IMG/VR virus record: IMGVR_UViG_3300028840_004051
Strand: one strand, 5' to 3'
DNA length: 35,962 nt
Origin: an uncultured virus (IMG/VR IMGVR_UViG_3300028840_004051)
Lineage: Duplodnaviria; Heunggongvirae; Uroviricota; Caudoviricetes
How positions within the stretch are numbered: the stretch's first letter is position 1; each line of letters starts with the position of its first letter. A program made the position numbers and the translations under genes. Positions 13,145-35,962 of this stretch are shown here, in pieces. The notes beneath the pieces were generated by a model. It ran no database searches. It was not told the origin of the DNA and was given only the letters and a program-made list of their open reading frames with translations.

Positions 13145-14046
13145 TGATACATCTCTTTTTTAATTCTTTTAATAACTCTATTAATACCAGACCAAACATC
13201 AATAGATGGAGTAAATTTTAAAATATTCTCTTGGAAAAACAAATCAGGTATTTTAGTAAGTGTCATCCTATCTGGCAACTTCTTAAATTTTATCAGATCA
13301 TTATCAATACCCAATCCATGGGCTATAAATTTTGCTACTGTACTCATTTTAACAACTTTTGGATGCCCTATATTAATGACATTATATTTTATCAAAGAAA
13401 AATCAGTATTAAGTAAACGGCTAAATGCAACCATCGCATCATCAATATGCATCCAACTTCTTCTTGATCCACTATGAACTTTTATATCTCTTCCTGCATA
13501 TAAATCTGAAACAAATCTAATAATAGCGCTTCTATGATTACCAATAACTTCATTTCCCCCATAAATCATAAATGGTCTAACCGTAACACAACTCAAACCA
13601 TAATTCTTAATTTCATAATCTACTAACTGTTCAGCAAGATATTTGCTAATACCATAACGATTATTAGGATTAGGAGTTAATTTTTCTGACATAATTTCAT
13701 TAGTATTACCATAAACTTCAGATGTAGAAAAATTAATTAAAGAAGCACCATACTTTTTACAGATTTGAATAACATTATTTGTACCAGTAACATTAGTATC
13801 AATGGCTAACTGAGCCTCTTTTTCACACGTAACCCTGCTAACAAATCCAGCCATATGATAAACGAATTCAGGTTTAAAACTATCAATAATAGAACTAGAA
13901 CAAGGATATTTAATATCCCATTGAATATAATCATCTTCATGCAAAGATACGATATCTACCCTCAATACATCATGTGAAAGAGATCTTAAATAAGGAACAA
14001 GTTCGCAACCAATATTACCCTCACTGCCAGTTACTAATATCCTCAT
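13141..14046 (-). CDS. NAD-dependent NDP-sugar epimerase/dehydratase (extended SDR)
   Basis: ILVTGSEGNIG, FSTSEVYG, YGISK (YxxxK). Confidence 0.92.
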   Translation of the reverse strand: MRILVTGSEGNIGCELVPYLRSLSHDVLRVDIVSLHEDDYIQWDIKYPCSSSIIDSFKPEFVYHMAGFVSRVTCEKEAQLAIDTNVTGTNNVIQICKKYGASLINFSTSEVYGNTNEIMSEKLTPNPNNRYGISKYLAEQLVDYEIKNYGLSCVTVRPFMIYGGNEVIGNHRSAIIRFVSDLYAGRDIKVHSGSRRSWMHIDDAMVAFSRLLNTDFSLIKYNVINIGHPKVVKMSTVAKFIAHGLGIDNDLIKFKKLPDRMTLTKIPDLFFQENILKFTPSIDVWSGINRVIKRIKKEMYQ

Positions 14047-14049
14047 TGC

Positions 14050-14148
14050 CTACAAAATTATCCAAATCTTATACAGTATATATCCACCAATTCCGAATAT
14101 AACCATAAGCAACAAAACGATTATCAAAAGGGTAAATTCAACACTCAT
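14050..14148 (-). CDS. 32-aa single-TM microprotein
   Basis: Not in the track. ATGA overlap with the upstream stop. MSVEFTLLIIVLLLMVIFGIGGYILYKIWIIL. Confidence 0.5.
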   Translation of the reverse strand: MSVEFTLLIIVLLLMVIFGIGGYILYKIWIIL

Positions 14149-14306
14149 ATCATCCAACATAGCCAAATAAAGAAGGCGACTGCCATCAGGCAAGCCGCTA
14201 CCCTGCAAAACCCTGCCATCCACTTAATAAAGTATTCTAACCCTCCACCTTTCCCATAATAGTCAGACAGATCAGGATCAGGTTCTGGCAAATTAGTAAT
14301 CAACAT
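14145..14306 (-). CDS. Small membrane protein
   Basis: GGAG RBS before ATG 14306. C-terminal hydrophobic helix. Confidence 0.5.
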   Translation of the reverse strand: MLITNLPEPDPDLSDYYGKGGGLEYFIKWMAGFCRVAACLMAVAFFIWLCWMI

Positions 14307-16939
14307 AATAACTCCTCTAATATTGATACCCACCTGGTGGGATCGAGGTTATCCTTTGCCCACTGCTTAGCGTTCATCCCCATTGCCAAGCGGTATGTTT
14401 CTTTCCTTTCCATCAGCTTCAAAGCATACTGAAAACCGTCATAATCTATGCATTGGAATCCGGTATCACCATGAACCACGCGATCGGCTGTTCCATCCCT
14501 TGGCTCAGTAAGTACTGGTAATCCGGCGGCCAGAGCCTCCGCCACAACTCTTGGATATTGATCTCTCCACCGGTTGCTAGTTCGATAGAGATACACATGG
14601 CCTCTTGAAAGGAAATCTGTGATGGGCATTGCGTTCCATTCGTAAAACTGCATCCTTTTATTTCCTCGGAAATGATTAACCAGTTCAGATGGTGCGGCCA
14701 TAAATTCAAATCTTGCTGACTTGACATTCTTCAATAACCTCTCATAGAATTTCGTATCAAGATCTTTATCAAGGCATTTCTGCCATACATGGATTTTATC
14801 GCCCCCTGTGGATTCTGTGGTGACAAACTTTCGCTTATCGGGTTTACAGTGCTTAAGGACTACAAGCTCATCATCCTTACTTCTCTTCGACGGTTCAATA
14901 TCAAGGAATTTATTCAGATCTATTGCGCCGAAAAGGACAATCTGCTTTGTACTGTCAAATCCAATCTGATCCCTTGCCCATTCCTGCTGCTTCTCTTTAT
15001 TCTGAAAGATGACGGCTTTCAACTTTCCAGACTCACTCAACCAATCACATTTTGGTAATGGACCGTTGACATAATTTATACCAACTATCAGCGAGCGACA
15101 TCTATCAACTAGTTGCCTCGATATCGGGTTCTTGACGAAATCCCATACTCTATCATTGGCATAAAATAGGATAGGCGAATTATCGATATGATTGATCATT
15201 CCTTCTTTAAAACTGCATGGCTCAGGTTTAAATAACGAGGCATTACGTTCATTCACTTTTCCCCAAGGGTATAGCTTAACTTGCCACCCAGCTTGCCTCA
15301 GCAAATTTGCAATCATACAAAAGGACTGCTCCCCACCACCATCAGTATTCATATTGCCAAGTAGATTAATCCTTTTATCTGTATAACTATTTATCTGCCT
15401 AGCTTTATCTCGGTCATAAATATAATCCTGCTTATCCTTGTCATATCCAACTGCATCATATTTATCACGATTATAAACATATGGTTCATTTGGACGACGT
15501 TGCCCAGGTTTAAGACTAATATCATTCTTTTGAGAAGTAGGAAGATATTCCGTATCTTCTTTATATAAATCTTCCGTCATAAAATCATGGTCTTTAGTCT
15601 CAGGCAGTGGAGTTATAGGGGCATCTTTTAATTCTTCCATCTCATCTTTTAATTCTACGACGGATTCCTTGACTTCTTTCATTTTATTTTTCAGCTCACT
15701 AGTGCCACTCCCAAGTGCACCATATCTATAAATCATCTTTAGTCTCCCACTTGTTCCATCTTGATATCGATACATATCTCCCTCATAGTATCGTTCTATA
15801 GCACGGATGACGTCATCCGCTTTTATTGTGTCCATACATGCCTGCACCTTTTTACCATCAACATCATGGGTTCTATAGCATAGACTCTTATTATGTTTCT
15901 CGTCCTTTTCAACTGGCTCAATCCTTGCTCTCCAGCACGCAGGCTGGCAGCAGCTATGAGCTCCATTCGTATGAAGGATCTGGTGATTGCAATACCAAGA
16001 CCATGTCGTAGGCTCCCGACCACCAAATATTGATACACAAGGCTTACGGCCCTTACCTATCTTGGAGGGAATGGCGGCGGTAAGATGCATGAGAAATGAT
16101 GGCACGCAAACGGTGCCAGTAGCATGATAAACAAGGGGTATCAGCCCTCGAATATCATCGTTGAAATAATCAATAAGGTTAATTGTATTCTTAAGATCAA
16201 ATTGAATGTGTTCACTCTTGCCAATTACGACGAATTTTATTTTCCCTTCAAAATAATCAATAACATCTTGAAACCGCCGCCAATCCCACAGCTTAGCCGT
16301 AAAGTCCCACTTACCTCCTGGCGCGATGACCCAGTATTCCTTCACTCCATAATCACGTTCAATAAGATTGTTTTCTTTCTCTTCTGATGTTAGATGAATA
16401 TCACCTCTCTGCCTGGCAAACTCTTTACAATGTTTTTTATATCTCTCCCTCAGAGAGATGAATGGCTCTCTGGCGTTTTGGTTCTTCCCGGGGTTCCCCA
16501 AAGACGGATCACCTACTGACCCGTTGGCAAAGGACGCGCAAAACTCTCCGAGGGAGATTGGAAGAGGCTGGTGTAAGTCAGCGACGGCAATCATATCAAG
16601 CAAAAACATAGTAGTAAAATGAATAGCAGCATTATTCGCATTACCTACCGCTGGGTAACCAACCTCGTAAAACTCAACTCCTGGCTGATTCTTGTTTAAT
16701 CCACGTTCAAGATATGGATTGTTTTCCCATAAGAAATTATGATTCGATTCAGCATTAATCAAGATATCGGGGAAGAGTAATTTAAAATCCCTGATACCTG
16801 CTGTGAACATCAACGCATCGCCAATACAACGATCATGTTTGAAGACGATCCTACGTTTCTTAGTATCGATATCTGACTGCTTAATATTGGCTGTTTTTGG
16901 TACGATTTCTATCTGCATATACTTCTTAATATTACCCAA
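14300..16939 (-). CDS. Fused glycosyltransferase: N-terminal GT9 (heptosyltransferase-like) plus C-terminal GT4-like domain
   Basis: N-half IGDALM, K.WDW.RFQ, SFLMHL.AA and Cys motif CCQPACW...C...CMDTI. Charged linker. C-half GGGEQS...DQYPRVVAEALAAGLPVL...V.HGDTGF. Start uncertain (TTG 16939 or ATG 16918). Confidence 0.85.
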   Translation of the reverse strand: MGNIKKYMQIEIVPKTANIKQSDIDTKKRRIVFKHDRCIGDALMFTAGIRDFKLLFPDILINAESNHNFLWENNPYLERGLNKNQPGVEFYEVGYPAVGNANNAAIHFTTMFLLDMIAVADLHQPLPISLGEFCASFANGSVGDPSLGNPGKNQNAREPFISLRERYKKHCKEFARQRGDIHLTSEEKENNLIERDYGVKEYWVIAPGGKWDFTAKLWDWRRFQDVIDYFEGKIKFVVIGKSEHIQFDLKNTINLIDYFNDDIRGLIPLVYHATGTVCVPSFLMHLTAAIPSKIGKGRKPCVSIFGGREPTTWSWYCNHQILHTNGAHSCCQPACWRARIEPVEKDEKHNKSLCYRTHDVDGKKVQACMDTIKADDVIRAIERYYEGDMYRYQDGTSGRLKMIYRYGALGSGTSELKNKMKEVKESVVELKDEMEELKDAPITPLPETKDHDFMTEDLYKEDTEYLPTSQKNDISLKPGQRRPNEPYVYNRDKYDAVGYDKDKQDYIYDRDKARQINSYTDKRINLLGNMNTDGGGEQSFCMIANLLRQAGWQVKLYPWGKVNERNASLFKPEPCSFKEGMINHIDNSPILFYANDRVWDFVKNPISRQLVDRCRSLIVGINYVNGPLPKCDWLSESGKLKAVIFQNKEKQQEWARDQIGFDSTKQIVLFGAIDLNKFLDIEPSKRSKDDELVVLKHCKPDKRKFVTTESTGGDKIHVWQKCLDKDLDTKFYERLLKNVKSARFEFMAAPSELVNHFRGNKRMQFYEWNAMPITDFLSRGHVYLYRTSNRWRDQYPRVVAEALAAGLPVLTEPRDGTADRVVHGDTGFQCIDYDGFQYALKLMERKETYRLAMGMNAKQWAKDNLDPTRWVSILEELLC

Positions 16940-23893: not shown

Positions 23894-24120
23894 TTTCTAA
23901 GAATTTCCAATCAGGTTACTTTAAATTATAATATAGTACCTAAAATAATTAAATAAATTTCTATAAAAAAATTAAAAATCAAAGGAAATCGTAGAAAATA
24001 GCTAAAAATATATAAAAAAAATTAATTTGGGGCAATATATCCTGATAATTATTTATAATCTAATCTAATTAGATCGTACAAGATTAGGAAATTTTTATTT
24101 TATATATTATATTAAGGGCA
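23894..24120. promoter_or_regulatory. AT-rich divergent promoter region
   Basis: Strand switch of all genes. TATAAT on the minus strand at 23925-23930 and on the plus strand at 24054-24059. No clear -35 hexamers. Confidence 0.6.
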
Positions 24121-24140
24121 AATGAAAACAAAACCAAATA

Positions 24141-24428
24141 AAAAACGGCAGGGGGCGAAACAAGGACCCATTAAAAACGATCAGATCACCGGCTGTTTTT
24201 TAGACTGCGCAAATAGCGCGGTATCCGTCATCGAAAGATAAGTGAACGGAATCAAGACACTTTAGGGCGGAAATTGAGGACAATCCCTTAATTGGCTGAA
24301 TCGAATCAACGATCAGGGTTCAGTAAGCCAGTTTAAATTGCTAATTGATTAACCGAGCGAAAAATACGTGGTTGATATGGATGAGCTATCCTTTTATATA
24401 TAAAGGATGTCTGATCGATATTAACCAT
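24141..24428 (+). ncRNA. Candidate structured 5' leader of the early operon (multiple hairpins)
   Basis: Stems aaaaacggc/gctgttttt, tgcgc/gcgcg, tccgt..atc-gaaa-gat..acgga, taggg/ccctta, tggct..ctgaa/ttcag..agcca and tggttgatat/atattaacca enclosing atccttt/aaaggat. Confidence 0.45.
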
Positions 24429-24451
24429 AATAAATAGATAGGAGGTAAAAA

Positions 24452-24868
24452 ATGAAGCACTCTACGGATATCTATTCATTCTTTCAAATATGGAAGGATG
24501 GAAAGATAAAACCAACTCCCTATGAGGGCGGTGATTCAACCCTTCCTAAAGGCGAAAGCGTTATTTTCGCCTTTAGGGATAGAAGGGTTTTAGGAGCAGA
24601 GGTCGTGATTACTATACCAGATAATATCCCCCATGAGGTTGGGGGTTATTATGCGTATGGTTACGATAATGCTCTTCACATCAAAGAGGAGCTTTATATC
24701 AGGCAAGAAGTTCCTCTGTCAATCTGCGATGTAGAAATAGATGAAATCCCAGAAATAGATGATTTCGTCTACGATTGCCCTGAAAAAATTACAGGCAATC
24801 CTTTTACGGTTAGTTTTCGTAAAAAATCGCTTGCCTTTTTATCAACATATCAAAGGAGGGAAAAATGA
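24452..24868 (+). CDS. Hypothetical early protein
   Basis: Strong TAGGAGGT RBS. First gene of the rightward operon. Confidence 0.75.
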   Translation: MKHSTDIYSFFQIWKDGKIKPTPYEGGDSTLPKGESVIFAFRDRRVLGAEVVITIPDNIPHEVGGYYAYGYDNALHIKEELYIRQEVPLSICDVEIDEIPEIDDFVYDCPEKITGNPFTVSFRKKSLAFLSTYQRREK

Positions 24869-25566
24869 AAACTATTAGTAGCATCAAATTAGAAGGGCTA
24901 ACGACCGAGGTAGGGTGCCATGACGACGTTCCCCTACCGTGGGGAACTGTAAACGTCGAAACCTGCCGAATTAGCGGTAGGTTGCATTCTACTCGTGGAG
25001 GCGCGTGGTATTGGCGTCTTCCGGAAGATGCCATAATCGGCTATGGAGAATTTTGCCCGTATGTCGATTTCTATTTCTCCGGACGGGTAGAGAGGACCTC
25101 TCGCCGAGATGACATCCCCGAAGATGGATGGGGGATGCGAATCGGCGACAGGTGCTGGCTTTATTTGGAAGGCGAGATCTCGCCGTGCTGGTTGAAAAGG
25201 TTAGAGAACCTGCTCGTGTGCGATCAATTCGGAGTAAATTCCGAAAAAGCTCAACGGCAAGGGCATCTAACAGTGGAGGATATTAGCATGACACCTGCCC
25301 GGTTGGTAGCCCAGAACTTTCCGCTATGGAAAGACACCGGTCATCAAATGGACCTGCTAACCAGGCGAAAAATATACAATCACCAGTTTTTCGGGGATTG
25401 TAGGATTTTCTTCGTCGATGATCGCAGATACAGAGTTGAACCGTGGGTTTGGCTCGTCTATTGCGTGGATTCGACATGGGTGGTTAGCCCGGACCACCCT
25501 GATGATCCAATCTTATTGTCACCGGGATGGTACAGAGCAGAGCATCCGGTTAAATCTTACAGATAA
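24865..25566 (+). CDS. Hypothetical early protein
   Basis: GGAGG RBS and ATGA coupling. C-terminal SPDH...I.L.PGWY motif. Confidence 0.75.
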   Translation: MKTISSIKLEGLTTEVGCHDDVPLPWGTVNVETCRISGRLHSTRGGAWYWRLPEDAIIGYGEFCPYVDFYFSGRVERTSRRDDIPEDGWGMRIGDRCWLYLEGEISPCWLKRLENLLVCDQFGVNSEKAQRQGHLTVEDISMTPARLVAQNFPLWKDTGHQMDLLTRRKIYNHQFFGDCRIFFVDDRRYRVEPWVWLVYCVDSTWVVSPDHPDDPILLSPGWYRAEHPVKSYR

Positions 25567-25585
25567 TGATGGAATCCTTTTGGAC

Positions 25586-25651
25586 CAGCAAGATAGCCAT
25601 TAAGACTTGTGCGTTGCTGGTCGGCTTGGAGGACCGATCAGCAGGTTGGCT
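25586..25651 (+). ncRNA. Repeat A1: pistol-ribozyme-like structured RNA (P1-less)
   Basis: AGCCA-UUAAG-ACUUGU-GCG-[11-bp stem]-GU-UGGCU, with upstream GCAAG complementary to CUUGU. Confidence 0.65.
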
Positions 25652-25678
25652 TTTAACTTTTAACAAGGGAGGTACAAA

Positions 25679-25936
25679 ATGGCATGGACACCAACAAAGT
25701 GGGCATGTGGTCACGAGGGCCACATGCAATTATACGGAAAACATTCAGCTCGGGAATCGAAGGTGGCATATGAAGCCGGCAGGGTTTGCATGGTATGCTG
25801 GCTGATTGACGAGTGGGCCGAATCAAATGACCCGCGTTCGAAACGAGATGACCGCATGCAACTAGCGGAGAAGATAGCTGGAGGAAAAGGTATTCGGATT
25901 GATATCACAAAAGATTGCTCATATATGAGCACCTAA
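25679..25936 (+). CDS. Small early protein with probable Zn site
   Basis: GGAGGT RBS. CGH...CMVC. Confidence 0.8.
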   Translation: MAWTPTKWACGHEGHMQLYGKHSARESKVAYEAGRVCMVCWLIDEWAESNDPRSKRDDRMQLAEKIAGGKGIRIDITKDCSYMST

Positions 25937-25938
25937 AG

Positions 25939-25990
25939 GTTAACCTCAGTTTAAGCCCTATGGAAACATAGGGCTTATGCGGATGTTAAC
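25939..25990 (+). ncRNA. Repeat B1: long irregular hairpin (RNase III-site-like)
   Basis: gttaac-ctcagtt-taagccctatg-gaaa-catagggctta-tgcggat-gttaac. Confidence 0.6.
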
Positions 25991-26014
25991 TCAAAACAAG
26001 GGGAGGTAGGAAAA

Positions 26015-26281
26015 ATGAAATACAAATCAAAATGCTTACAACATTTAAATGCAACGCCAAAACCTTTAGTTGAAGGATTAATTACAATTAATGCAAAATT
26101 TGAAGTAAATACAAAACAAAAACAGAGAATCATATTATTCGAAACAAAAAAAGGCGGGTACGTTCTCCCTAATGAATTTTCTGTCGTAATTTACTACCAT
26201 ACAAACACAATTGGATTCAATAATCTTACATATGCTAAGGCATCGGCAATTTTCTGGGCATTGGCTTCTAATTTAGATTAA
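26015..26281 (+). CDS. Hypothetical early protein
   Basis: GGAGGT RBS supplied by the repeat B cassette. Confidence 0.7.
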   Translation: MKYKSKCLQHLNATPKPLVEGLITINAKFEVNTKQKQRIILFETKKGGYVLPNEFSVVIYYHTNTIGFNNLTYAKASAIFWALASNLD

Positions 26282-26294
26282 TCTGAATCTCTAA

Positions 26295-26360
26295 CAGCAA
26301 GATAGCCATTAAGACTTGTGCGTTGCTGGTCGGCTTGGAGGACCGATCAGCGGGTTGGCT
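26295..26360 (+). ncRNA. Repeat A2: pistol-ribozyme-like structured RNA
   Basis: 65/66 identical to A1; the single change converts U-A to U-G in the stem. Confidence 0.65.
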
Positions 26361-26390
26361 AAAACATTTAAATAGATAGGAGGTAGGAAA

Positions 26391-26648
26391 ATGACAAATT
26401 TGCATGAATTACAAAAATCTGGAATTAACATAGAATTTGGCAGGTGGTCCGGACAACACCCAGGCCTAAACAAATCATTTCTGGTTCATAATTCCACTGC
26501 AAAAAAAATAATGGAATATCATAATTCTGGCTACAAAATTATAGTCGGTAACTCGCCATATGGACCTGGAATTATGATATCTCAATTCAATTCCCGATAT
26601 CATGGGCATTCAATCAGAACTATCAGAGCAGTCAAAAAATCAAGCTAG
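26391..26648 (+). CDS. Hypothetical early protein
   Basis: TAGGAGGT RBS. Confidence 0.7.
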   Translation: MTNLHELQKSGINIEFGRWSGQHPGLNKSFLVHNSTAKKIMEYHNSGYKIIVGNSPYGPGIMISQFNSRYHGHSIRTIRAVKKSS

Positions 26649-26697
26649 CCTCAGTTTAAGCGCCATGCTCAGGTATGGCGCTTATGCGGATGTTAAC
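26644..26697 (+). ncRNA. Repeat B2: long irregular hairpin
   Basis: Same flanks as B1 with a different but still paired apical stem (taagcgccatgc/gtatggcgctta). Confidence 0.6.
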
Positions 26698-26720
26698 TCA
26701 AAACAAAGGGAGGTAGGAAA

Positions 26721-26942
26721 ATGACAAATTCAGAAAGACTCGAACTGGCAGAAAGAGTCAGAAAAGCAATTGAATCAAAAAGCCTCGATCATGCCCTATT
26801 AAAAGAACGAGATGAAATCGAGCGATTCTTGAACGTTAAAGCTGATGAATTACCCATTAATGTTTTGGTTGATTGCCATGTGGCAGTAGCAAGTGACGAT
26901 ATGATGGAATTACATCATATCGGATATGGGGTGAGAAGATGA
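26721..26942 (+). CDS. Hypothetical early protein
   Basis: GGAGGT RBS. Confidence 0.7.
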   Translation: MTNSERLELAERVRKAIESKSLDHALLKERDEIERFLNVKADELPINVLVDCHVAVASDDMMELHHIGYGVRR

Positions 26943-27058
26943 AAGGGGCGATCACAAAAAAGAACTTTTTCGGGATTTGGAGGGCTTTTGGATTGAAGAA
27001 AGCCATTAAGGTTCTTTTTTCCAGAAGCCCAGTGGCATTGAATTTACTGATGTTATAA
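26939..27058 (+). CDS. 39-aa basic amphipathic microprotein
   Basis: Not in the track. ATGA coupling. MKGAITKKNFFGIWRAFGLKKAIKVLFSRSPVALNLLML. Confidence 0.55.
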   Translation: MKGAITKKNFFGIWRAFGLKKAIKVLFSRSPVALNLLML

Positions 27059-27072
27059 GGAGGTAAAAGAAG

Positions 27073-27312
27073 ATGAAAAAAGGTCAAATGGTAAGAATTA
27101 TAAGTGTACCAACCTCAACCGACGAATACTTAATAGGTCAGGCCGGTAAGATTATGAAGGTCGAAAAAGGCAAATGCACGCTTTTTCATGTCAGCATCCC
27201 AGGGCAGCATCGTAACCTGAGAATGTTTGAGGATGAAATCGAACCGGTCAGAGAAGATAGATATTTGCCACCAAATATGCTATCAGCAATAGCTGAAATA
27301 AACGGAGGTTAA
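27073..27312 (+). CDS. Small SH3/KOW-like beta-barrel protein
   Basis: GGAGGT RBS. MKKGQMVRII...IGQAGKI...F.DEIE pattern. Confidence 0.7.
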   Translation: MKKGQMVRIISVPTSTDEYLIGQAGKIMKVEKGKCTLFHVSIPGQHRNLRMFEDEIEPVREDRYLPPNMLSAIAEINGG

Positions 27313-27314
27313 AA

Positions 27315-27452
27315 ATGCGATCCTTTTTGTATGCGTTACTTAGGATTTTAAATGATCTGAATGCAGTCAAAAAAAACAAGGTAGGTCGGCGGATCGGTAG
27401 ACGAGCCGCTGGCAAGGTTACACAGAAAATGATGAATAAAATTTTTAAATGA
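27315..27452 (+). CDS. 45-aa highly basic protein
   Basis: Not in the track. GGAGGT RBS. MRSFLYALLRILNDLNAVKKNKVGRRIGRRAAGKVTQKMMNKIFK. Confidence 0.7.
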   Translation: MRSFLYALLRILNDLNAVKKNKVGRRIGRRAAGKVTQKMMNKIFK

Positions 27453-27464
27453 AGGGAGGTAAAT

Positions 27465-27737
27465 ATGAAATCTGACCTACAAAGAGTATTAGAAAGCGAA
27501 GGATGGGTTGATGAATCATGGAAAACCGAGTTCATCTGTGACTACCTCGAAGAAAGAGGCCACTATGTTAATTATTCTGATCTGTCAGAACCCGTCATCG
27601 AATTCCTGATGGGTGAAATCGGGCTTGAAAGCTATATGTATGTATCGGTCCGATATGGTTTAGAACCACTGACAGCAAAGGCAATGATCAGAGATATGCT
27701 GAAAGCCGAAAAACTAATGGAGGATAAAAATGTCTAA
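27465..27737 (+). CDS. Hypothetical acidic early protein
   Basis: GGAGGT RBS. Confidence 0.7.
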   Translation: MKSDLQRVLESEGWVDESWKTEFICDYLEERGHYVNYSDLSEPVIEFLMGEIGLESYMYVSVRYGLEPLTAKAMIRDMLKAEKLMEDKNV

Positions 27738-28032
27738 ACCTACTTTCACCTTTAAAAAAATGATTCATACCGGCAGGTACAAAGGCTTCGAAAAAGACTT
27801 TACCGATATAAAACTTAAAAGAAAAATCGTCGGCTACATTCGTGAAGTTGAATTTCGTAAATATAAAATTAGTTTTGCTGTTAAAAAAGAACCAACAAAA
27901 GAAGATCCTGCACCTTTCAGATGGGTCAGATTAGTTATTCAGTTTAAAACAGAAAAAGAAGCAAGAGAATTCCTAAAAGAAAGAGCAGAAGATATCATCA
28001 ATAAATATGATCTTTATTCTTTTGATGACTAA
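27730..28032 (+). CDS. Hypothetical early protein
   Basis: GGAGGA RBS; overlaps the upstream gene. Confidence 0.7.
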   Translation: MSKPTFTFKKMIHTGRYKGFEKDFTDIKLKRKIVGYIREVEFRKYKISFAVKKEPTKEDPAPFRWVRLVIQFKTEKEAREFLKERAEDIINKYDLYSFDD

Positions 28033-28040
28033 AAATCAAA

Positions 28041-28107
28041 CAGCAAGATAGCCATTAAGACTTGTGCGTTGCCAGTGAGCTTAGGAGGACTTACTGGCGG
28101 GTTGGCT
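28041..28107 (+). ncRNA. Repeat A3: pistol-ribozyme-like structured RNA with covarying stem
   Basis: Core identical to A1/A2; stem rewritten as gccagtgag/cttactggc. Confidence 0.65.
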
Positions 28108-28148
28108 GTTAAACTTTTAATTATTAAATAATAGGAGGTTGCACAACT

Positions 28149-28679
28149 ATGGATATGAATAAGTTATGGGAAGAAAACGAAAAAACAATCAATTACCTAT
28201 CAGGTTCTTTTTGGAACAGCTACCCAAAGATAGATAAAGAAGAGTATCGGGATAATGCTATTGACTGCTTCATCAGATGCTGTGAAAGATATCAAGAAGA
28301 AAGCAATAATGGAGCCTGTTTCAATACCTACCTACACACCAGCATTAAGCAGTATTTCAAAGGGATGATCGTCAACCACAGCCAGCAGCAGCATGATATA
28401 ACAGAGTACAGTGAAGAACAGGCAATAAACAAGCTATCGCCAGAAAAAATGGTAGCTTTTAAGAATCAACTTGAATGCCTGAGCCAAGATGCTATCAACG
28501 TCATTAACCACATCCTTTTCGCCGCAGATGAAGTGAATAATACCGGCCGCTATGCAGCGACTCATGCCAGCATAACGAAAGGAGAGCTTAGAAAGAAGCT
28601 TCAAAAGAAGTGGTTCGGCAGAGGTGGGCAAAAAAGGGTAAATAAAGCATTTAAGGAAATCAAATCAGCAATGGCTTAA
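28149..28679 (+). CDS. Phage sigma-70-like factor (region 2)
   Basis: DKEEYRDNAIDCFIRCCERY....GACFNTYLHTSI matches the sigma region 2 pattern. Region 4 is not clearly recognisable. Confidence 0.65.
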   Translation: MDMNKLWEENEKTINYLSGSFWNSYPKIDKEEYRDNAIDCFIRCCERYQEESNNGACFNTYLHTSIKQYFKGMIVNHSQQQHDITEYSEEQAINKLSPEKMVAFKNQLECLSQDAINVINHILFAADEVNNTGRYAATHASITKGELRKKLQKKWFGRGGQKRVNKAFKEIKSAMA

Positions 28680-28727
28680 TAATTTTTCCTATTAGATAGT
28701 TATAATATTTAAAGGAGGTTTAAAAAA

Positions 28728-30761
28728 ATGTCTGATAAAAGACAAATATATCAGATGATCGATGAAAGTGATGAATTCACCATTGGCTGTCTTCTTGAGC
28801 TTCATTCAAGGCAGACATGGGATGAGCAGTACAGTCGATCAACCGATGAAGCAAACAGTGTAGGATTTAATAAAATCGATGCTTCCCCAATGTCTAACAT
28901 CGCAGAATTCTATATTCAAAAAGAATTCATAACTCCAAAACAGATCGCCTTTGTAAAGAAGATAATCAAGAAGTATCATGGGCAATTAAGCACTAACATC
29001 ACACCAAGACCAATCAAAAGATTACCGCAGCAGCCCCAAGCAGACGAGGAATACAAAAAAGTCGAAAAGATGAATGGAAATAAATTGGCCATCATCTTCC
29101 GTTTCCCTCGTGGTGATAAGAGATTCAGGGAAACGGTTGCAGATATCAAAAGCAAGGTTGCAGGTCGACGGTGGGAGCCGGAGCTACCAGGCAAACCCTG
29201 GACTTGCCCTCTATCTATTGAAAATATTGAGGCTCTTAATAATCTGGGATTTGAGATCCCAAATGACCTTAAAGAATGGCAGCAGCAGATGACCGCACCA
29301 ATCGATGATATCCCAGAGGTCGATATCCCAGGTTTAAAAGGAGAGTTATATCCCTTTCAGAAGAAGGGGGTTGAGTGGATTGAAAGCAGAAACGGCCGGG
29401 CACTAATTGCAGACGAGATGGGTCTGGGGAAAACAGTTCAAGCTCTGGCTTGGCTACAACTCCACCCTGAAGCTCGCCCTGCCCTTATTATCTGCCCTGC
29501 ATCAGTAAAGCTGAATTGGCATAGGGAGGCACATCGTTGGCTTGATAAACCAAATGTCACCGTCTTATACGGTAGATATGATAAAGATAAACCTCTCAAA
29601 ATAGATGATGATTCAATCATCATCTGCAATTACGATATACTACCTAACCAAACAATCCGCGAAAAAAGAACCGGTATGAAAGATAGAATCGTTGAGCTGC
29701 CAAACACAGGCTGGGCTGATGCGCTAAAGAAAGTAGGTTTAAAAGTAATCGTGACGGATGAATCTCACTATACCAAAAACAGCAAAGCCCTAAGAACAAA
29801 GGCGGTAAAAAAGCTTGCTAAATATGCAGACAATATGATCGCCTTATCAGGGACGCCAATCACGAATCGACCAGTTGAATTCTTCAATACGATCAATATG
29901 GTCAACCCTAGGATATTCCCTAAATTCTGGGATTACGCTAAGCGATATTGCGATGCAAAGAATAATGGATTCGGTTGGGATTTTAGCGGAGCAACTAATA
30001 CAAAGGAGCTACATGATAAACTAACAAAAACTTGCATGATCCGCCGCAAAAAGGCTGAGGTCTTGCCTGATCTACCAAAAAAGGTTAGATCAGTAGTGCC
30101 GCTTGAGATTGATAACAGAGAGGAATATAACAGAGCAGCTGCAAATATTATCAGATGGATCGAAGAAAATGAAGGCTTGGAGCAAGCAAAAAAGGCGAAG
30201 CAAGCCGAGGTATTGGTTGAATTTGAAAAACTGAAACAGCTTGCTGTGAAAGGCAAACTTGATCAGGCCATCAAGTGGATTGAGGACTTTATTGACATAG
30301 ATGGTAAATTAGTTGTATTCGCCGATCACCAATTCACAATCAATGCCCTGATGAAAAAGTTCGGCAAAAAGGCAGTGAAGATTGATGGCTCCACCCCTCA
30401 GAAAGAAAGGCAAAATGTAGTTGATCGATTTCAGAATGATGACAGCATCCGCCTATTTATTGGAAGTAAGGCCGCGAAGGAAGGGATCACATTAACTGCA
30501 TCGAGCAATACTTGTTTTCTTGAACTTTGGTGGGTCCCCGGCGATCACAGCCAAGCTGAAGACAGAGTCCATAGAATCGGCCAGGAAGCTGATTCCGTTA
30601 ATGCATGGTACCTAATCGCAGAGAGAACAATCGAGGAAGGGCTTGCCACTATCCTCGATGAAAAGCAAAAGGTATTATCGTCGGTTCTTGACGGAGAAGA
30701 TACTGACGATTCATCAGTTTTAATCGAACTTTTAAATCATTACAAGAAAGGAGGTTATTAA
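28728..30761 (+). CDS. SNF2/SMARCAL1-like DEAD/DEAH helicase
   Basis: LYPFQ, ADEMGLGKT, DESH, LSGTP, QAEDRVHRIGQ. TATAAT at 28701-28706 and GGAGGT upstream. Confidence 0.95.
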   Translation: MSDKRQIYQMIDESDEFTIGCLLELHSRQTWDEQYSRSTDEANSVGFNKIDASPMSNIAEFYIQKEFITPKQIAFVKKIIKKYHGQLSTNITPRPIKRLPQQPQADEEYKKVEKMNGNKLAIIFRFPRGDKRFRETVADIKSKVAGRRWEPELPGKPWTCPLSIENIEALNNLGFEIPNDLKEWQQQMTAPIDDIPEVDIPGLKGELYPFQKKGVEWIESRNGRALIADEMGLGKTVQALAWLQLHPEARPALIICPASVKLNWHREAHRWLDKPNVTVLYGRYDKDKPLKIDDDSIIICNYDILPNQTIREKRTGMKDRIVELPNTGWADALKKVGLKVIVTDESHYTKNSKALRTKAVKKLAKYADNMIALSGTPITNRPVEFFNTINMVNPRIFPKFWDYAKRYCDAKNNGFGWDFSGATNTKELHDKLTKTCMIRRKKAEVLPDLPKKVRSVVPLEIDNREEYNRAAANIIRWIEENEGLEQAKKAKQAEVLVEFEKLKQLAVKGKLDQAIKWIEDFIDIDGKLVVFADHQFTINALMKKFGKKAVKIDGSTPQKERQNVVDRFQNDDSIRLFIGSKAAKEGITLTASSNTCFLELWWVPGDHSQAEDRVHRIGQEADSVNAWYLIAERTIEEGLATILDEKQKVLSSVLDGEDTDDSSVLIELLNHYKKGGY

Positions 30762-30982
30762 TGGCCAAAAAGCAGATGGTAATAACATTAATGAAAGAAA
30801 AGGGTTTGGTGCAGATCGAAGGATTCAAAACACCCATAGAAATCAAAAAGCCAGAAGGTTGCATTGGCATCATGTACGCATGGGAATCAAAAGCAGCTGC
30901 ATATCATTGGTATGGGAAAAAGGTACCAACAGTTAGGATTGAATATGATAAGAGTAAGAAAGGCAGCAATAAAGAGAATTAG
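30761..30982 (+). CDS. Hypothetical protein
   Basis: GGAGGT RBS and TAATG coupling. Confidence 0.65.
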   Translation: MAKKQMVITLMKEKGLVQIEGFKTPIEIKKPEGCIGIMYAWESKAAAYHWYGKKVPTVRIEYDKSKKGSNKEN

Positions 30983-31151
30983 AAAAGCACCAGTTAAGCA
31001 AAAAATAAACCGCTGGTGGCATTATAATCTAACAAGAGACAATCTATTAGAGTTCGGGATATATAGGGATTGGATGATACCCTATATATCCTTTGATAAA
31101 GCGATGAAGTTAGCTGGAGAAAAATTTACAGACAAAAGGAGCAACCAATGA
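30945..31151 (+). CDS. Hypothetical basic protein
   Basis: Start likely ATG 30945 (AGGA upstream). ATGA-coupled to the next gene. Confidence 0.5.
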   Translation: MIRVRKAAIKRIRKAPVKQKINRWWHYNLTRDNLLEFGIYRDWMIPYISFDKAMKLAGEKFTDKRSNQ

Positions 31152-32335
31152 AAATATTCAGTGTAAAAAATGATCTTATTTTTATTTATCAAGATAATGA
31201 ACCAACCCTGAAAAGGACAATTGAAAATGCTGTCAAATCTGGCATTAGCTTAAATTATGCCGAGCTGAATAATGCCGAGCTGAATGGTGCCAAGCTGAAT
31301 GGTGCCAAGCTGAATAATGCCGAGCTGAGTAATGCCAAGCTGAATGGTGCCAAGCTGAATAATGCCAAGCTGAATGATGCCGATCTGAATGATGCCGAGC
31401 TGAATTATGCCGATCTGAATGATGCCGAGCTGAATGATGCCGATCTGAATGATGCCGATCTGAATGGTGCCGATCTGAATGGTGCCGAGCTGAATGGTGC
31501 CAATCTGAATTATGCCAAGCTGAATTATGCCAAGATGAATGGTGCCAAGCTGAATTATGCCAATCTGAATTATGCCAAGCTGAATGATGCCAAGCTGAAT
31601 GATGCCAAGCTGAACGGTGCCAAGCTGAATGGTGCCAAGATGAATAATGCCAAGCTGAATGATGCCGAGCTGAATGATGCCGAGCTGAATGATGCCAAGC
31701 TGAATGGTGCCTGGATGAATGATGCCAAGATGAATAATGCCAAGCTGAATGATGCCGAGCTGAATGGTGCCGAGCTGAATTATGCCAAGCTGAATGGTGC
31801 CAAGATGAATGATGCCAAGATGAATGATGCCGAGCTGAATTATGCCGAGCTGAATGGTGCCGAGCTGAATGATGCCAAGCTGAATTATGCCAAGCTGAAT
31901 GATGCCAAGCTGAATTATGCCAAGCTGAATTATGCCAAGATGAATGATGCCGAGCTGAATGGTGCCGAGCTGAATGGTGCCAATCTGAATGGTGCCGAGG
32001 GGTTATTAGATCCATCTAAATGGCTGGAAGAAAACTTCAGATATATTTCAGATGGATTAATCACCTACAAAGATGTTCAATCCACTTTTCACAAAAAACC
32101 TGAATCATGGAAGATTGAACCTGGAAGCTATTTAGCAGAAATATGCAATCCAAACAGAACAACTGATTGTGGCAGTGGCGTTAATTTTGCAACATTGGAT
32201 TGGCTGAGGAAATACTCACACCATGAAATATGGGAATGCATTATCGAATGGAAAGACCTCCCTGGAATCATTGTACCGTATAATACAGATGGAAAGGCAA
32301 GATGTCATCGCCTTAGATTAATTAGAAAAATATAA
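31148..32335 (+). CDS. Pentapeptide-repeat protein with phage-type C-terminal domain
   Basis: About 50 A-[KEDN]-[LM]-N-[DGYN] repeats. C-terminal NPNRTTDCGSGVNFAT...GKARC domain. Confidence 0.92.
   Translation: MKIFSVKNDLIFIYQDNEPTLKRTIENAVKSGISLNYAELNNAELNGAKLNGAKLNNAELSNAKLNGAKLNNAKLNDADLNDAELNYADLNDAELNDADLNDADLNGADLNGAELNGANLNYAKLNYAKMNGAKLNYANLNYAKLNDAKLNDAKLNGAKLNGAKMNNAKLNDAELNDAELNDAKLNGAWMNDAKMNNAKLNDAELNGAELNYAKLNGAKMNDAKMNDAELNYAELNGAELNDAKLNYAKLNDAKLNYAKLNYAKMNDAELNGAELNGANLNGAEGLLDPSKWLEENFRYISDGLITYKDVQSTFHKKPESWKIEPGSYLAEICNPNRTTDCGSGVNFATLDWLRKYSHHEIWECIIEWKDLPGIIVPYNTDGKARCHRLRLIRKI
31259..31996 (+). repeat. 15-bp tandem repeat (consensus gccaagctgaatgat), about 49 units
   Basis: Directly visible. 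The gcc, tg and aat positions are almost invariant. Confidence 0.95.
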
Positions 32336-33240
32336 TGCTATTTAACGCTAAAAAATTCTGTCAAGATCATCATATCGAGATGAGCCCTCCAGGGCATAAA
32401 CATACCCGCCCTGGCTGGGTTCATATTCGATGCCCTTTTTGCAGTGGAAACCCAGGGTGGCATGGCGGGTTCAATATTAAAGAGGGATACTACAACTGCT
32501 GGCGTTGTGGGTATCACTGGATTGTTAAGGTAGTAGTAAATCTACTTAGTATATCCTATCAAGAGGCAAAATTAATCATCTATAATAAGGGGTATTCATC
32601 CGAGCAATTCAGATTTCAAAAAAGTAAAACATCAACCAGAATAAATTTTAAAAAAGAAATATCCCTCCCACCGATGACCCAATACAATCTCACAAAACAG
32701 CATATCGATTATCTACTATCACGCCGCTTTGATCCAATAGAATTAAAAACCAAATGGAATCTAATGTCAACAGGTAACATAGGTGCATATAGTCATAGGA
32801 TACTTGCGCCTATTTATTTTAGAGGCCATATGGTTAGCTATCAATGCAGGGCTACAAAAATAGGCCAGAACCCACCTTATTTAGCCTGTGCTGGTCATGA
32901 TGAGCTTATAAAGCATAAAGATATTATATATGGGTTTGACGCCGCTATAAGGCTAAATCAGTGCATTGTGGTTGAAGGGATAACAGATGTATGGAGATTA
33001 GGATATGGAGCGGTGGCTACATTCGGGAAGTCTTTCACTAAAGCACAACTGCTGCTGATTGCAAACAATTTTAAACATATTTTTATTTTACCAGATAGCG
33101 ATGTTAAAGAAGAAGAAACAATGACAGAACCCTTAGCCGGGCTTGGAAAGGAGGTTGAAGAAATAAGATTGGATAAAGGTGACCCTGGTGATATGCGCCA
33201 GGGTGATGCAGACTATTTAATGAAGACATTAGGATTTTAA
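32335..33240 (+). CDS. DnaG-type DNA primase (Zn finger plus TOPRIM)
   Basis: CPFC...CWRC; VVEGITD; LPDSD (DxD); DPGD. Confidence 0.9.
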   Translation: MLFNAKKFCQDHHIEMSPPGHKHTRPGWVHIRCPFCSGNPGWHGGFNIKEGYYNCWRCGYHWIVKVVVNLLSISYQEAKLIIYNKGYSSEQFRFQKSKTSTRINFKKEISLPPMTQYNLTKQHIDYLLSRRFDPIELKTKWNLMSTGNIGAYSHRILAPIYFRGHMVSYQCRATKIGQNPPYLACAGHDELIKHKDIIYGFDAAIRLNQCIVVEGITDVWRLGYGAVATFGKSFTKAQLLLIANNFKHIFILPDSDVKEEETMTEPLAGLGKEVEEIRLDKGDPGDMRQGDADYLMKTLGF

Positions 33241-33254
33241 GAGAGGAAACAATT

Positions 33255-33881
33255 ATGGAAGAAATAAATTTAAATTGGTTTAAAAAAAATAGAAAGGGGC
33301 TCGATAACTATATCAAATCTACAATTCAAGAATGTGATCTCGATCAACTTACATTCAGTGATATCCACGATGCGGTTCTTAATAACATAGGAGTGATAAA
33401 TTACAATAATCAAGGCCCCGGCTTTCCGAAGTGGATTACAAGAAGAGTCAAGAAGCATGCTGCCGATCTTGGCATAGCTGTCCCGTATTACAGTGGGGAG
33501 AAAGGGACAAGAGCGGTCGGGATAAAGTTTATCAAACCGCCACCACCTTCCGAACAGACGCTACCTGAGAAAGAAACAACAGAACCCATTCACCAAGAAC
33601 CAACGAATGATGAGCTCGATCTGCTGACAATCGGGAAAGCGATTGACCGTTATATCGATGAGCTAAAGACAAGAATCAAATTAGTAGAAGAGGAAGCAGA
33701 AATATCAAGGAATAAATTCAATCGCACTGTTAATGATCTCACTCAGGCCAATAAAGATAAAGATAGAACGATTGAAAAGCTAAACCAAAGGATCGCTAAT
33801 CTTAATAATCTTGTTAAGAGTGATTCTCAAAAAAATAGATCGGCAACTTTTAAGTTTTCTGAGCTGGCAAATTTTAAATAG
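33255..33881 (+). CDS. Hypothetical protein with C-terminal coiled coil
   Basis: GAGG RBS. Pro-rich linker and heptad-like tail. Confidence 0.75.
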   Translation: MEEINLNWFKKNRKGLDNYIKSTIQECDLDQLTFSDIHDAVLNNIGVINYNNQGPGFPKWITRRVKKHAADLGIAVPYYSGEKGTRAVGIKFIKPPPPSEQTLPEKETTEPIHQEPTNDELDLLTIGKAIDRYIDELKTRIKLVEEEAEISRNKFNRTVNDLTQANKDKDRTIEKLNQRIANLNNLVKSDSQKNRSATFKFSELANFK

Positions 33882-33930
33882 TAAAAAATTTTCTTTAAAA
33901 TTAAAATTAAATAATATATAATTCTTTTAC

Positions 33931-34012
33931 CTGATTGAGCTTGGCCTCTCGATCAGCTTCCACCAGGGCGATTCCACGGTAGGGTGCCGTTAACACCCTA
34001 CCAAGCCCAATC
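33931..34012 (+). promoter_or_regulatory. Structured leader upstream of the replication initiator
   Basis: TATAAT at 33917-33922, then a GC-rich segment with hairpins ctgattgag/ctcgatcag and ggtagggtg/caccctacc and an alternative pairing gattgagcttgg/ccaagcccaatc. Confidence 0.5.
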
Positions 34013-34097
34013 TAATTGATACCTTTTAACGGGAGGTTAAAAATCACAATTCAAAAAGCCAACCAGAACGTATTCAATTCAAGGAGAGGTCTCTCTT

Positions 34098-35234
34098 ATG
34101 GAAACAGAAAAGCATGGATTGTACATCCCACCAGAAGCATGGCATTCCCAAATCCCAAACTCTGCAAAAATCCTATACGGACGATTATGCACATTACCTT
34201 CTTTTAGCGTTGATGGCTCCTTTGCATCCCGAGAATGGATGGCAAGTGAGATCGGAGTCAGCAAACAGCGGATCACACAATTAATCCGAGTATTAATTGA
34301 TGCAGAATTGATACTGGATAATGGTTGGCATATCGGAAAAAATAGACAGAAAACGAGAATCTTGAAGCGGAATTCATTAGAGATAACCAATAGAAAATTG
34401 ATGGATAACGACACAGCGACAGGTAATAATAAATTATTAGGTGTCATGACAGGTAATAAAAAATTATTAGGGGGGTGTAATAATAAATTATTAGGTGTCA
34501 AGGAAGAAAATGATAAGAAAGTAGAAGAAAATCAAGAAGTTATAGGCGAAAGCGGGCGATCTAATAATAAGAGTATTAATAATAAGAGTATATATTCCTT
34601 TGCCTCGCCTGACGGCGAGGGACAAAGGGACATAAATCCTTCCCTTCCTTCCTATTATCAGAACAGGAATGGAGTCCGTCCTCATATCATCCGATTCACG
34701 AAATCTATCCAAAAAGAAATCATAAAAAACCATCCTGATAAATTTAGGCAATATTCCTCAGAACAAATTGATAATAAGATCAAGGATGGCTCCTCCGTAA
34801 TCGATAAACTCATTCGTATAAACAACTTCGATTTTCAGACAGAAATAAAACCATGCCTACACTGGGCAATCAATGATGATTTTTGGACAGATCAGATCCG
34901 TTCCTTGGTTCCATTAAGAAATAAATCATCAAATGGGGAGATGAAGTTTACAAATATATTTGACTCCTGGAAATCAGATCTAAAGAAGAAAAAGAAAAAA
35001 CGGAATGATGATAATCAACCTCCGACCATAGGTAAACCTTGGACGGTTGAAGAAATCAACAGATACAATGAAGAGCAAGACAAAATACTCAAGATTGAAC
35101 GTGAAGAAAAACTTAAAAAGATTGCCAAGATGTCCTATGGTGAAATAGTTAGGCATAATCAGTCATGCAGGAGAGGGCATAAGATAACTGAATATGAAAT
35201 GAAGGAAGCGGAAAAATATGGATATAGCGGATAA
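34098..35234 (+). CDS. Phage replication initiator (lambda-O-like, N-terminal winged HTH)
   Basis: AKILYGRL...FAS.EWMASEIGVS.QRI.Q.I..L. Internal iterons. C-terminal W..DDFW..QI.S...LR.K motif. Followed by a helicase. Confidence 0.8.
   Translation: METEKHGLYIPPEAWHSQIPNSAKILYGRLCTLPSFSVDGSFASREWMASEIGVSKQRITQLIRVLIDAELILDNGWHIGKNRQKTRILKRNSLEITNRKLMDNDTATGNNKLLGVMTGNKKLLGGCNNKLLGVKEENDKKVEENQEVIGESGRSNNKSINNKSIYSFASPDGEGQRDINPSLPSYYQNRNGVRPHIIRFTKSIQKEIIKNHPDKFRQYSSEQIDNKIKDGSSVIDKLIRINNFDFQTEIKPCLHWAINDDFWTDQIRSLVPLRNKSSNGEMKFTNIFDSWKSDLKKKKKKRNDDNQPPTIGKPWTVEEINRYNEEQDKILKIEREEKLKKIAKMSYGEIVRHNQSCRRGHKITEYEMKEAEKYGYSG
34418..34499. repeat. Three iteron-like repeats (candidate replication origin)
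   Basis: gtaataa(t/a)aaattattagg three times, with internal dyad symmetry. Second repeat taataataagagtat twice at 34562-34591. Confidence 0.75.
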
Positions 35235-35962
35235 AGTATGGCGTCGTAGGAAGAGGGTCAATCTTACTCCATTAAAACGAATAGTCATCTTGATGGCAAT
35301 CAATGACGAATTCCTTCTTTCCATTACCCCTCTATTTCAAGATACCTCATTTTTCCCCAATACTCCATATCTCCTAACAGTAGCAAAATGGATTATAAAG
35401 CATGGCAAAGAATACGGTCGAGCTCCAAGAGAATACCTTGATACCAAATTCAATGATTATCAGGCGGAGATTGGCAGTGATGAACCAGATGTAGAGCTGA
35501 TTGCAAAGTTCCTAAAACAACTGAATGATGAATACCATAGAGGTGATTTCAACGATGTTAATGTTAAGTATGAATTGGAAGTGGCTGAGGAGCTTCTCCA
35601 ATCCTACGCATTGATGAAGAATTCAAATGATGTTATTGAAGCCATTAAAGCTAACGCAATCAAAGAGGCGATTGAAATTAGAAAAACGTTCACCCTTCCC
35701 GCTATTAAAATAATCGAACGTCCTCCATCTGAAATAATCGAAAAGAAAGCCATCACATCCACCGACCTCATTAAAGCTGACATCAGTGAGCCAAGTCCAA
35801 TCATAACCCCATGGCTGCATGATGGCAGCATTACGATGATATACGGTAAGAGAGGGGTTGGGAAGACATGGATATCCTCAATCATCGCCGTATGTGTTAC
35901 AAGAGATAATAATGTCGATGTGCCAAAGATAGGAAATTGGAATGTAAAGAGGCAAGCGGGGG
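35218..35962 (+). CDS. RecA-fold (AAA_25/RepA/DnaB-like) replicative helicase, truncated by the window end
   Basis: Not in the track. Open from ATG 35218 (MDIADKVWRRRKRVNLTP...) to the edge. PWLHDGSITMIYGKRGVGKTW Walker A. Confidence 0.85.
   Translation, partial: MDIADKVWRRRKRVNLTPLKRIVILMAINDEFLLSITPLFQDTSFFPNTPYLLTVAKWIIKHGKEYGRAPREYLDTKFNDYQAEIGSDEPDVELIAKFLKQLNDEYHRGDFNDVNVKYELEVAEELLQSYALMKNSNDVIEAIKANAIKEAIEIRKTFTLPAIKIIERPPSEIIEKKAITSTDLIKADISEPSPIITPWLHDGSITMIYGKRGVGKTWISSIIAVCVTRDNNVDVPKIGNWNVKRQAG

Follow-up and report, generated by a model that had tools for sequence, protein, structure and literature searches.

The window analysed here is a stretch of 35,962 nucleotides (nt) that forms part of a 44.7-kb IMG/VR virus record (IMGVR_UViG_3300028840_004051, Caudoviricetes). 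A co-directional gene array on its + strand (24452..35961) diverges from the - strand genes for terminase and structural proteins, and comprises small open reading frames (ORFs) of no known family, an SNF2 helicase gene (28728-30761), a gene for a pentapeptide-repeat protein and an AAA_25 helicase-like ORF. Three intergenic spacers in this array hold copies of an RNA element that resembles the pistol ribozyme (Rfam RF02679), a class said to have been described by Weinberg in 2015, and that differs from it in having no P1 hairpin. The elements begin 20, 14 and 9 nt past the stop codons that close the preceding ORFs at 25566, 26281 and 28032. Their positions and parts are listed below, with scores for the Rfam Pistol model and for a covariance model built here from P1-less elements (own model).

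25586..25651 (+): P1-less pistol-like element, copy 1; Rfam Pistol 25.3 bits, own model 73.8 bits
25588-25592 (+): copy 1, 5' strand of the putative pseudoknot, GCAAG
25593-25594 (+): copy 1, linker AU
25595-25599 (+): copy 1, 5' strand of helix P2, AGCCA
25600-25604 (+): copy 1, UUAAG
25605-25610 (+): copy 1, 3' strand of the putative pseudoknot, pairing through nt 25606-25610
25611-25613 (+): copy 1, GCG
25614-25644 (+): copy 1, helix P3 of 11 base pairs (bp) with loop CUUGGAGGA
25645/25646 (+): copy 1, predicted cut between G25645 and U25646
25647-25651 (+): copy 1, 3' strand of P2, UGGCU
26295..26360 (+): P1-less pistol-like element, copy 2; Rfam Pistol 20.6 bits over model positions 21-68, own model 80.4 bits
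26354/26355 (+): copy 2, predicted cut between G26354 and U26355
28041..28107 (+): P1-less pistol-like element, copy 3; Rfam Pistol 24.0 bits over model positions 21-68, own model 70.1 bits
28101/28102 (+): copy 3, predicted cut between G28101 and U28102
25625-25633, 26334-26342 and 28080-28089 (+): P3 loops of copies 1, 2 and 3

A 25-nt core probe matched the window exactly three times, at 25586, 26295 and 28041 on the + strand, with no mismatch and with no match in 100 shuffles, and a repeat search of the window returned a single three-copy family of 66 nt. Sequence, probe and repeat search therefore all agree with the three elements, their positions and their layout as first described in a sequence-only reading of this DNA. 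In a three-way alignment the 5' 34 nt and the last 9 nt were identical in all copies, the identity blocks running from CAGCAAG to GCGUUGC and from GGUUGGCU onward, and the flanks could not be aligned on either side, so that the borders of the module are sharp. Copy 2 was 98% identical to copy 1, the one A to G change converting a P3 U-A pair to U-G. Copy 3 differed from copy 1 by 10 substitutions and one inserted base, all within P3 or its loop and none of the 11 in the other 34 nt; its core is that of the other copies, its loop is CUUAGGAGGA and its P3 is rewritten with compensatory changes. P3 is an 11-bp helix in every copy, with four pairs altered on both sides and one changed from G-U to G-C, and its wobbles (G-U, U-G) are possible solely in + strand RNA. 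The covariation of P3, the + strand wobbles and the invariance of the single-stranded parts outside the apical loop, all noted in the sequence-only reading, could thus be seen directly in the alignment. Because the differences are confined to P3 and its loop and the flanks cannot be aligned, the conserved module begins at CAGCAAG and contains no P1.

No Rfam family matched the window at gathering thresholds. With E-value reporting, Pistol ranked first in every copy (25.3, 20.6 and 24.0 bits in copies 1, 2 and 3). Pistol model positions 21-68 were aligned in every copy, covering P2, UUAAG, the 6-nt junction strand, GCG, P3, GU and the return strand of P2, with matching consensus letters. P2 forms as AGCCA/UGGCU with 5 bp in 3/3 copies; the two-base GU at 25645-46, 26354-55 and 28101-02 is aligned to the model junction; and the AG of UUAAG (purine 32 and G33) and the GCG triplet (G40, C41, G42) align letter for letter. 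Agreement with the pistol core in sequence and spacing, previously argued from the env25 pistol, is therefore upheld by the Rfam alignment, and running this model, as had been suggested, recovered all three copies below threshold with the core aligned. According to Harris 2015 (PMC4604425), all 500 known pistols have P1, P2, P3, a pseudoknot with the P1 loop and ten highly conserved nt, and the cut site lies in a two-nt P3-P2 junction, usually GU, of strictly conserved length. PMC6795133 ascribes catalytic roles to G40, purine 32 and G33, and the corresponding letters are present in all window copies. The accessible text of a deep mutational paper, PMC9901934, holds no pistol data.

The 5' part of the pistol model was not recovered. 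Model positions 1-20 were unmatched in two of the three copies; copy 1 alone was aligned over them, through a forced and weak 4-bp UUUG/CAAG stem that has no counterpart in copies 2 and 3 and that would consume the CAAG required for the pseudoknot. In place of the A-rich linker, just AU (window copies) or 0 nt (the majority subtype described below) separates the pseudoknot strand from P2. The junction strand is present, and its partner is a linear strand beside P2, not a hairpin loop. Both the Rfam alignment and the non-alignable flanks bear out the earlier statement that no conserved P1 or A-rich linker lies upstream.

A search of other viral contigs for the exact core ATTAAGACTTGTGCGT gave one match, in L007, which was set aside as a chance match inside apparent coding sequence. 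Since the exact core was absent from other IMG/VR contigs, a pattern scan indifferent to P1 was used, in which UUAAG, GCGUUG and GGUUGG were fixed and P1 was left free. It returned 27 stretches in viral contigs, at least 120 in metagenome contigs and at least 120 in genome contigs, the counts of family members from metagenomes and genomes being lower bounds. Stretches were retained by a script if at least 4/5 P2 pairs and at least 5 P3 pairs could form, which left at least 33 distinct pistol cores. Among the 33 listed, five were ordinary pistols, with the strand complementary to the junction 12 nt before P2 and within a hairpin with a 4-6-bp stem, and 28, including the three window copies, were P1-less, the complementary strand preceding P2 by 0-1 nt and lacking any stem around it. 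At least 28 distinct P1-less elements were thus found in at least 20 records: the window record, the IMG/VR contigs L035/L036 and L129, and at least 17 metagenome contigs. As measured by script, the flanking stem amounts to 0-1 bp in P1-less members (2 bp in L267, next to another upstream site) compared with 4-6 bp in ordinary pistols, and the upstream flanks are A/U-rich and unconserved in 28/28 aligned P1-less members.

The covariance model that the sequence-only reading had recommended was built from these 28 elements and found two more copies, both on the contig of L035, raising the distinct set to at least 30. In one of the two, the third P3 pair is a compensatory C-G. The contig of L035 carries five strong P1-less copies and one degenerate one. 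This sixth copy (L429 1501-1602, record position 4351-4452) has a 49-nt P3 insertion, a mismatched P2 return strand (UGAUU) and no ribosome-binding site or start codon after it, and may be a decaying or remodelled member. On the window the model gave 80.4, 73.8 and 70.1 bits for the three copies and 14.1 bits for the next best match; the window copies are in the training set, so that these scores are partly a matter of construction.

With the Rfam model, P1-less members scored 22.4-29.1 bits, with alignments starting from model position 21-23, as against 48-62.3 bits for four ordinary pistols from the same scans. The missing bits are those of P1 and the linker, and standard annotation therefore misses the whole family. 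At E <= 1 the Rfam Pistol model gave no match for L013 or L129, both expected carriers. The pistol of L013 (also L071, L086, L156, L169 and L174) is an ordinary one, in which P1 is clear (GUGG-ACUACU-CCAC) and the junction strand matches it.

A distant blastn search of INPHARED phage records with window 24000-29000 gave no match. Looser patterns, in which P2 or the pseudoknot was freed, found P1-less elements in just two other phage contigs among viral contigs; the remaining matches were rejected as chance or coding matches or as ordinary pistols. In the genome collection, no P1-less element was among the listed matches of the P1-agnostic scan, and two tighter patterns gave a P1-less element on a single 4.9-kb contig (L431 = L436), binned into an archaeal metagenome-assembled genome. 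As judged from these searches, the P1-less pistols are a wider family, of which the window copies are a rare subtype among the matches listed.

Support for the helices was assessed on a model-made alignment of 31 distinct rows, which include one ordinary pistol, the pseudoknot having been left out of the model. Paired cells amounted to 94.7%, compared with 81.1% in shuffles and 28-43% with slid partners. Nine of the 11 family P3 pairs were altered on both sides, and P2, with 98.1% of cells paired, hardly varied. Because the window copies have an extra base before P2, the pseudoknot was counted by a script that allowed spacers of 0-2 nt before P2 and kept the best-pairing register. In 30 distinct P1-less elements the 6-nt pseudoknot was fully paired in 23, 5/6 paired in six and 4/6 paired in one, and in 30/30 of those listed the partner was a single strand 0-1 nt before P2. 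The commonest pairing is GCAGGG/CCCUGU. Two elements with ACAGGG convert G-U to A-U at position 1, and some with UCCUGU convert G-C to G-U at position 6. Position 4 is G-C in 26/30 elements and A-U in the three window copies (GCAAG/CUUGU), a change on both sides. The GCAAG/CUUGU pairing proposed from the window alone thereby gains a compensatory change from its relatives, which carry GCAGGG/CCCUGU at the same place, and the window subtype supplies the only both-sided change that supports the pseudoknot. A rival pairing of CAAG with CUUG of the P3 loop was rejected, being lost in copy 3 and in L129. The computed duplex energy of the window pseudoknot is -4.1 kcal/mol against -8.7 kcal/mol in the majority subtype; the pseudoknots of five standard pistols range from -4.8 to -11.6 kcal/mol, so that the window value is near the weakest. 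These data lend modest support to the pairing across the family and suggest that the GCAAG/CUUGU pseudoknot would form in the window copies.

The genes and other features that bear on the placement of the elements are as follows.

25679..25936 (+): ORF of 85 amino acids (aa), no known family; ATG 33 nt past the predicted cut of copy 1, with GGGAGGU before it
26391..26648 (+): 85-aa ORF, no known family; ATG 36 nt past the predicted cut of copy 2, with UAGGAGGU before it
28149..28679 (+): 176-aa ORF directly upstream of the SNF2 gene; ATG 47 nt past the predicted cut of copy 3
25938-25991 and 26643-26697 (+): second intergenic repeat, a long imperfect hairpin, with leaders to 26014 and 26720
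L010 3415-3470 (+): type III hammerhead, 43.5 bits against a cut-off of 48.5, ending 15 nt before the first early ATG
L009 809-865 (+): type III hammerhead, 40.7 bits against a cut-off of 48.5

The predicted GU steps lie 33, 36 and 47 nt ahead of the ATGs at 25679, 26391 and 28149, as the sequence-only reading had placed them. Across the family, a Shine-Dalgarno (SD)-like motif and a start codon follow the predicted cut in 29/30 P1-less elements, at a distance of 25-47 nt and once of 66 nt, the sole exception being the degenerate copy on the contig of L035. The best promoter-like site of the window is at 23904-23932, and promoter-like sites are not enriched. A simple terminator scan flagged copy 1 alone (25634-25649), on account of its UUUU; no U run is present in copies 2 and 3, and a terminator was rejected.

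An SD-like GGAG, GAGG or AGGA is also present within the P3 loop of 28/29 P1-less elements, and in 19 of 20 distinct loops compared with 5.4 in shuffles. It is missing from the ordinary pistols of the same scans. P3 stems covary freely whereas this purine motif of the loop stays, and it may bind ribosomes or a protein; no complementary partner for it was found nearby.

SNF2 helicase relatives in IMG/VR were confined to four loci, with 41-44% identity. In two of them (42-44% identity) the helicase gene is preceded, on the same strand, by a type III hammerhead whose core is intact. The 176-aa ORF is weakly similar to a 177-aa ORF at the same place in L010 (E 2e-4), and no similarity was found between the genes downstream of the hammerhead and those downstream of the pistols. 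The second intergenic repeat of the window forms about 22 bp with three 1x1 mismatches and an inner stem that covaries between its two copies; its minimum free energies are -29.2 and -26.9 kcal/mol (z -6.4 and -4.8), and its near-identical leader CUCAAAACAA(G/A)GGGAGGUAGGAAAA runs up to the ATG. It had no meaningful match in Rfam and resembles a processing site of RNase III type. Flanked by the SNF2 helicase and by a 301-aa ORF without a known family is a 395-aa protein (31148-32335, +) made up nearly entirely of pentapeptide repeats (Pfam E 1e-55), which also give rise to a long spurious ORF on the other strand at 31245-32015. On the - strand, a sugar-modification block at 12200-16939 encodes three proteins: a 314-aa Glyco_trans_1_2 protein, a 301-aa NAD-dependent epimerase/dehydratase and one of 879 aa in which glycosyltransferase domains of family 9 and group 1 are combined.

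The interpretation favoured here is that the elements are probably active, minimal P1-less pistols that punctuate the early operon, dividing a long message into units of one gene each. P2 (AGCCA/UGGCU), P3 and the catalytic loop residues, namely the AG of UUAAG, the GCG triplet and the two-base GU junction, would be placed as in canonical pistols. The 6-nt junction strand would pair with the free GCAAG two bases upstream of P2 and so form an H-type pseudoknot rather than a kissing contact with a P1 loop, and P1 and the A-rich linker that docks on it would be absent together. According to PMC11300833, the pistol pseudoknot is coaxial with P1 and P3, P2 is adjacent and parallel, and the linker makes an A-minor triple with P1. 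In such a geometry P1 and the linker would form a detour, its start and finish both close to one end of the pseudoknot, and they could plausibly be lost as one unit, the pseudoknot strand then joining P2 directly. Each element would be transcribed within the early polycistronic message and cut between G and U, so that the upstream message would keep the ribozyme at its 3' end with a 2',3'-cyclic phosphate and the downstream message would begin with a 5'-OH and a 33-47-nt leader ahead of the ribosome-binding site. The arrangement fits an early polycistronic transcript cut between cistrons, at three places, by the RNA itself; such self-cleavage and its effect on the message in vivo are predicted from sequence.

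Several observations weigh against this interpretation. All three copies and the family members fall below the Rfam Pistol cut-off of 34.5 bits, and in PMC4604425 P1 and the A-minor linker covary and help to define all 500 published pistols; no experiment in which they had been removed was found. The 31-row alignment was fitted to the model, leans to the model P2 and P3, includes one ordinary pistol and sets the window copies one column out of register in the pseudoknot. Independent covariation events in the pseudoknot are few (one compensatory, two compatible and one-sided), a single pseudoknot mismatch is carried by each of L193, L240, L035 copy 1 and L267, and the window pseudoknot, of 5 bp including one G-U, is the weakest of all those computed. 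Because the patterns used to collect the family fix UUAAG, GCGUUG and GGUUGG, core invariance across it is partly a product of the selection; conservation free of this bias is limited to the window copies and to the two copies that the model found on the contig of L035. No RNA run was among the listed data sets that contain the stretch; the two listed are DNA contigs and may be the source samples.

A pistol-derived fold that no longer cuts, and that acts instead as a structured RNA between cistrons (binding a protein or the ribosome, stabilising a 3' end or offering a target to a nuclease of host or phage), is an unlikely explanation and still one to be taken seriously. The main ground for keeping a non-catalytic or dual-function role in view is the conserved P3 loop motif, which suggests a sequence-specific partner not needed for catalysis; the missing P1 and docking linker, the sub-threshold Rfam scores, and the long imperfect hairpins of RNase III-site type in other spacers of the same operon point the same way. 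Nevertheless, all catalytic letters and the strict two-base junction are kept, in the window copies despite P3 divergence at 11 positions and also in the two copies on the contig of L035 that were found by the model outside pattern selection. A plain hairpin would have no need of P2, the pseudoknot strand or UUAAG and GCG, and related phages put true hammerhead cores in a similar position.

The same loop motif allows a bolder form of the self-cleaving interpretation, which is distinctly unlikely. The P1-less pistol would be a 'cut-and-translate' cassette, the smallest natural pistol (~60 nt), whose SD-like P3 loop would retain either a 30S subunit or a ribosome that terminates on the upstream gene, and would so couple cleavage to loading on the gene 25-47 nt downstream. 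If this were true, phage pistols would gain a defined job in gene expression.

That the elements are selfish or neutral intergenic repeats with ribozyme remains and no role for the phage is improbable. Such repeats would account for the several copies per genome (three in the window, five strong and one degenerate on the contig of L035) and the sharp module borders, but orientation and placement between stop codon and SD are fixed in 29/30 elements, the core is constrained while P3 drifts with compensation, and no terminal repeats or target duplications were seen when the flanks were read directly. It is very improbable indeed that these are normal pistols whose P1-like partner is supplied otherwise, by a non-conserved upstream hairpin of each copy or by a trans strand, since the 4-bp UUUG/CAAG stem that the Rfam model could force before copy 1 is not in copies 2 and 3 and uses up the CAAG that pairs with CUUG, the upstream flanks of the 28 aligned members are A/U-rich and unconserved with a flanking stem of 0-1 bp (L267, 2 bp) against 4-6 bp in ordinary pistols, and the complementary strand adjoins P2 in every member.

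The self-cleaving, P1-less pistol favoured here shares with RF02679 the helices P2 and P3, the 6-nt junction strand between UUAAG and GCG, the 2-nt GU junction at the cut site and an association with phages. It differs from that class in the absence of the P1 hairpin and A-rich linker, in the replacement of the loop-loop contact by an H-type pseudoknot with a free 5' partner strand 0-2 nt from P2, and in the P3 loop GAGGA that the P1-less elements keep. No description of a natural P1-less pistol was found in a full-text literature search, most subscription journals being outside its coverage, which accords with the sequence-only reading, to which no described form of this kind was known. Pistols have been defined by three stems and a pseudoknot with the P1 loop, and structural and mechanistic work has all been on the three-stem form. 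A natural family that lacks P1 and the docking linker would reveal which parts are truly required for catalysis and would offer a smaller scaffold for engineering. It would also show that standard annotation is missing a subclass, the Rfam cut-off excluding every member.

The majority P1-less subtype (L035/L036, L129, L185-L295) has the same architecture, P2 (AGCCA/UGGCU), core, SD-like P3 loop and order of stop codon, ribozyme, SD and start codon. The window copies differ from it in pairing GCAAG with CUUGU, not GCAGGG with CCCUGU, in having an extra 1-2 nt (AU) before P2 and in a junction strand that begins with A; among the other members listed, the AU spacer and leading A were seen in L267 only. 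By these differences the window elements are assigned to a second P1-less subtype, with an AU spacer and an altered pseudoknot.

The pseudoknot-containing hammerhead (Zhan 2024, PMC11300833) likewise has a compact fold in which a 6-bp pseudoknot is stacked between two helices with a third alongside, but its core is CUGAUGA/GAAA, of which the window elements have none, and it keeps a helix equivalent to P1. The type III hammerheads of L010 and L009 share with the window elements the strand and the early-operon placement in phages with an SNF2 helicase, one of them lying directly before an SD and start codon. They differ in being of another ribozyme class, single-copy and sub-threshold, with non-homologous downstream genes. 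Among the early genes of phage T7, intercistronic RNase III sites split a polycistronic early transcript into single-gene messages. Those sites require a host protein enzyme, whereas the window RNA would cut itself, and, given the fixed placement of the P1-less elements (29/30) and their several copies in one operon, operon punctuation by self-cleavage can be tested directly.

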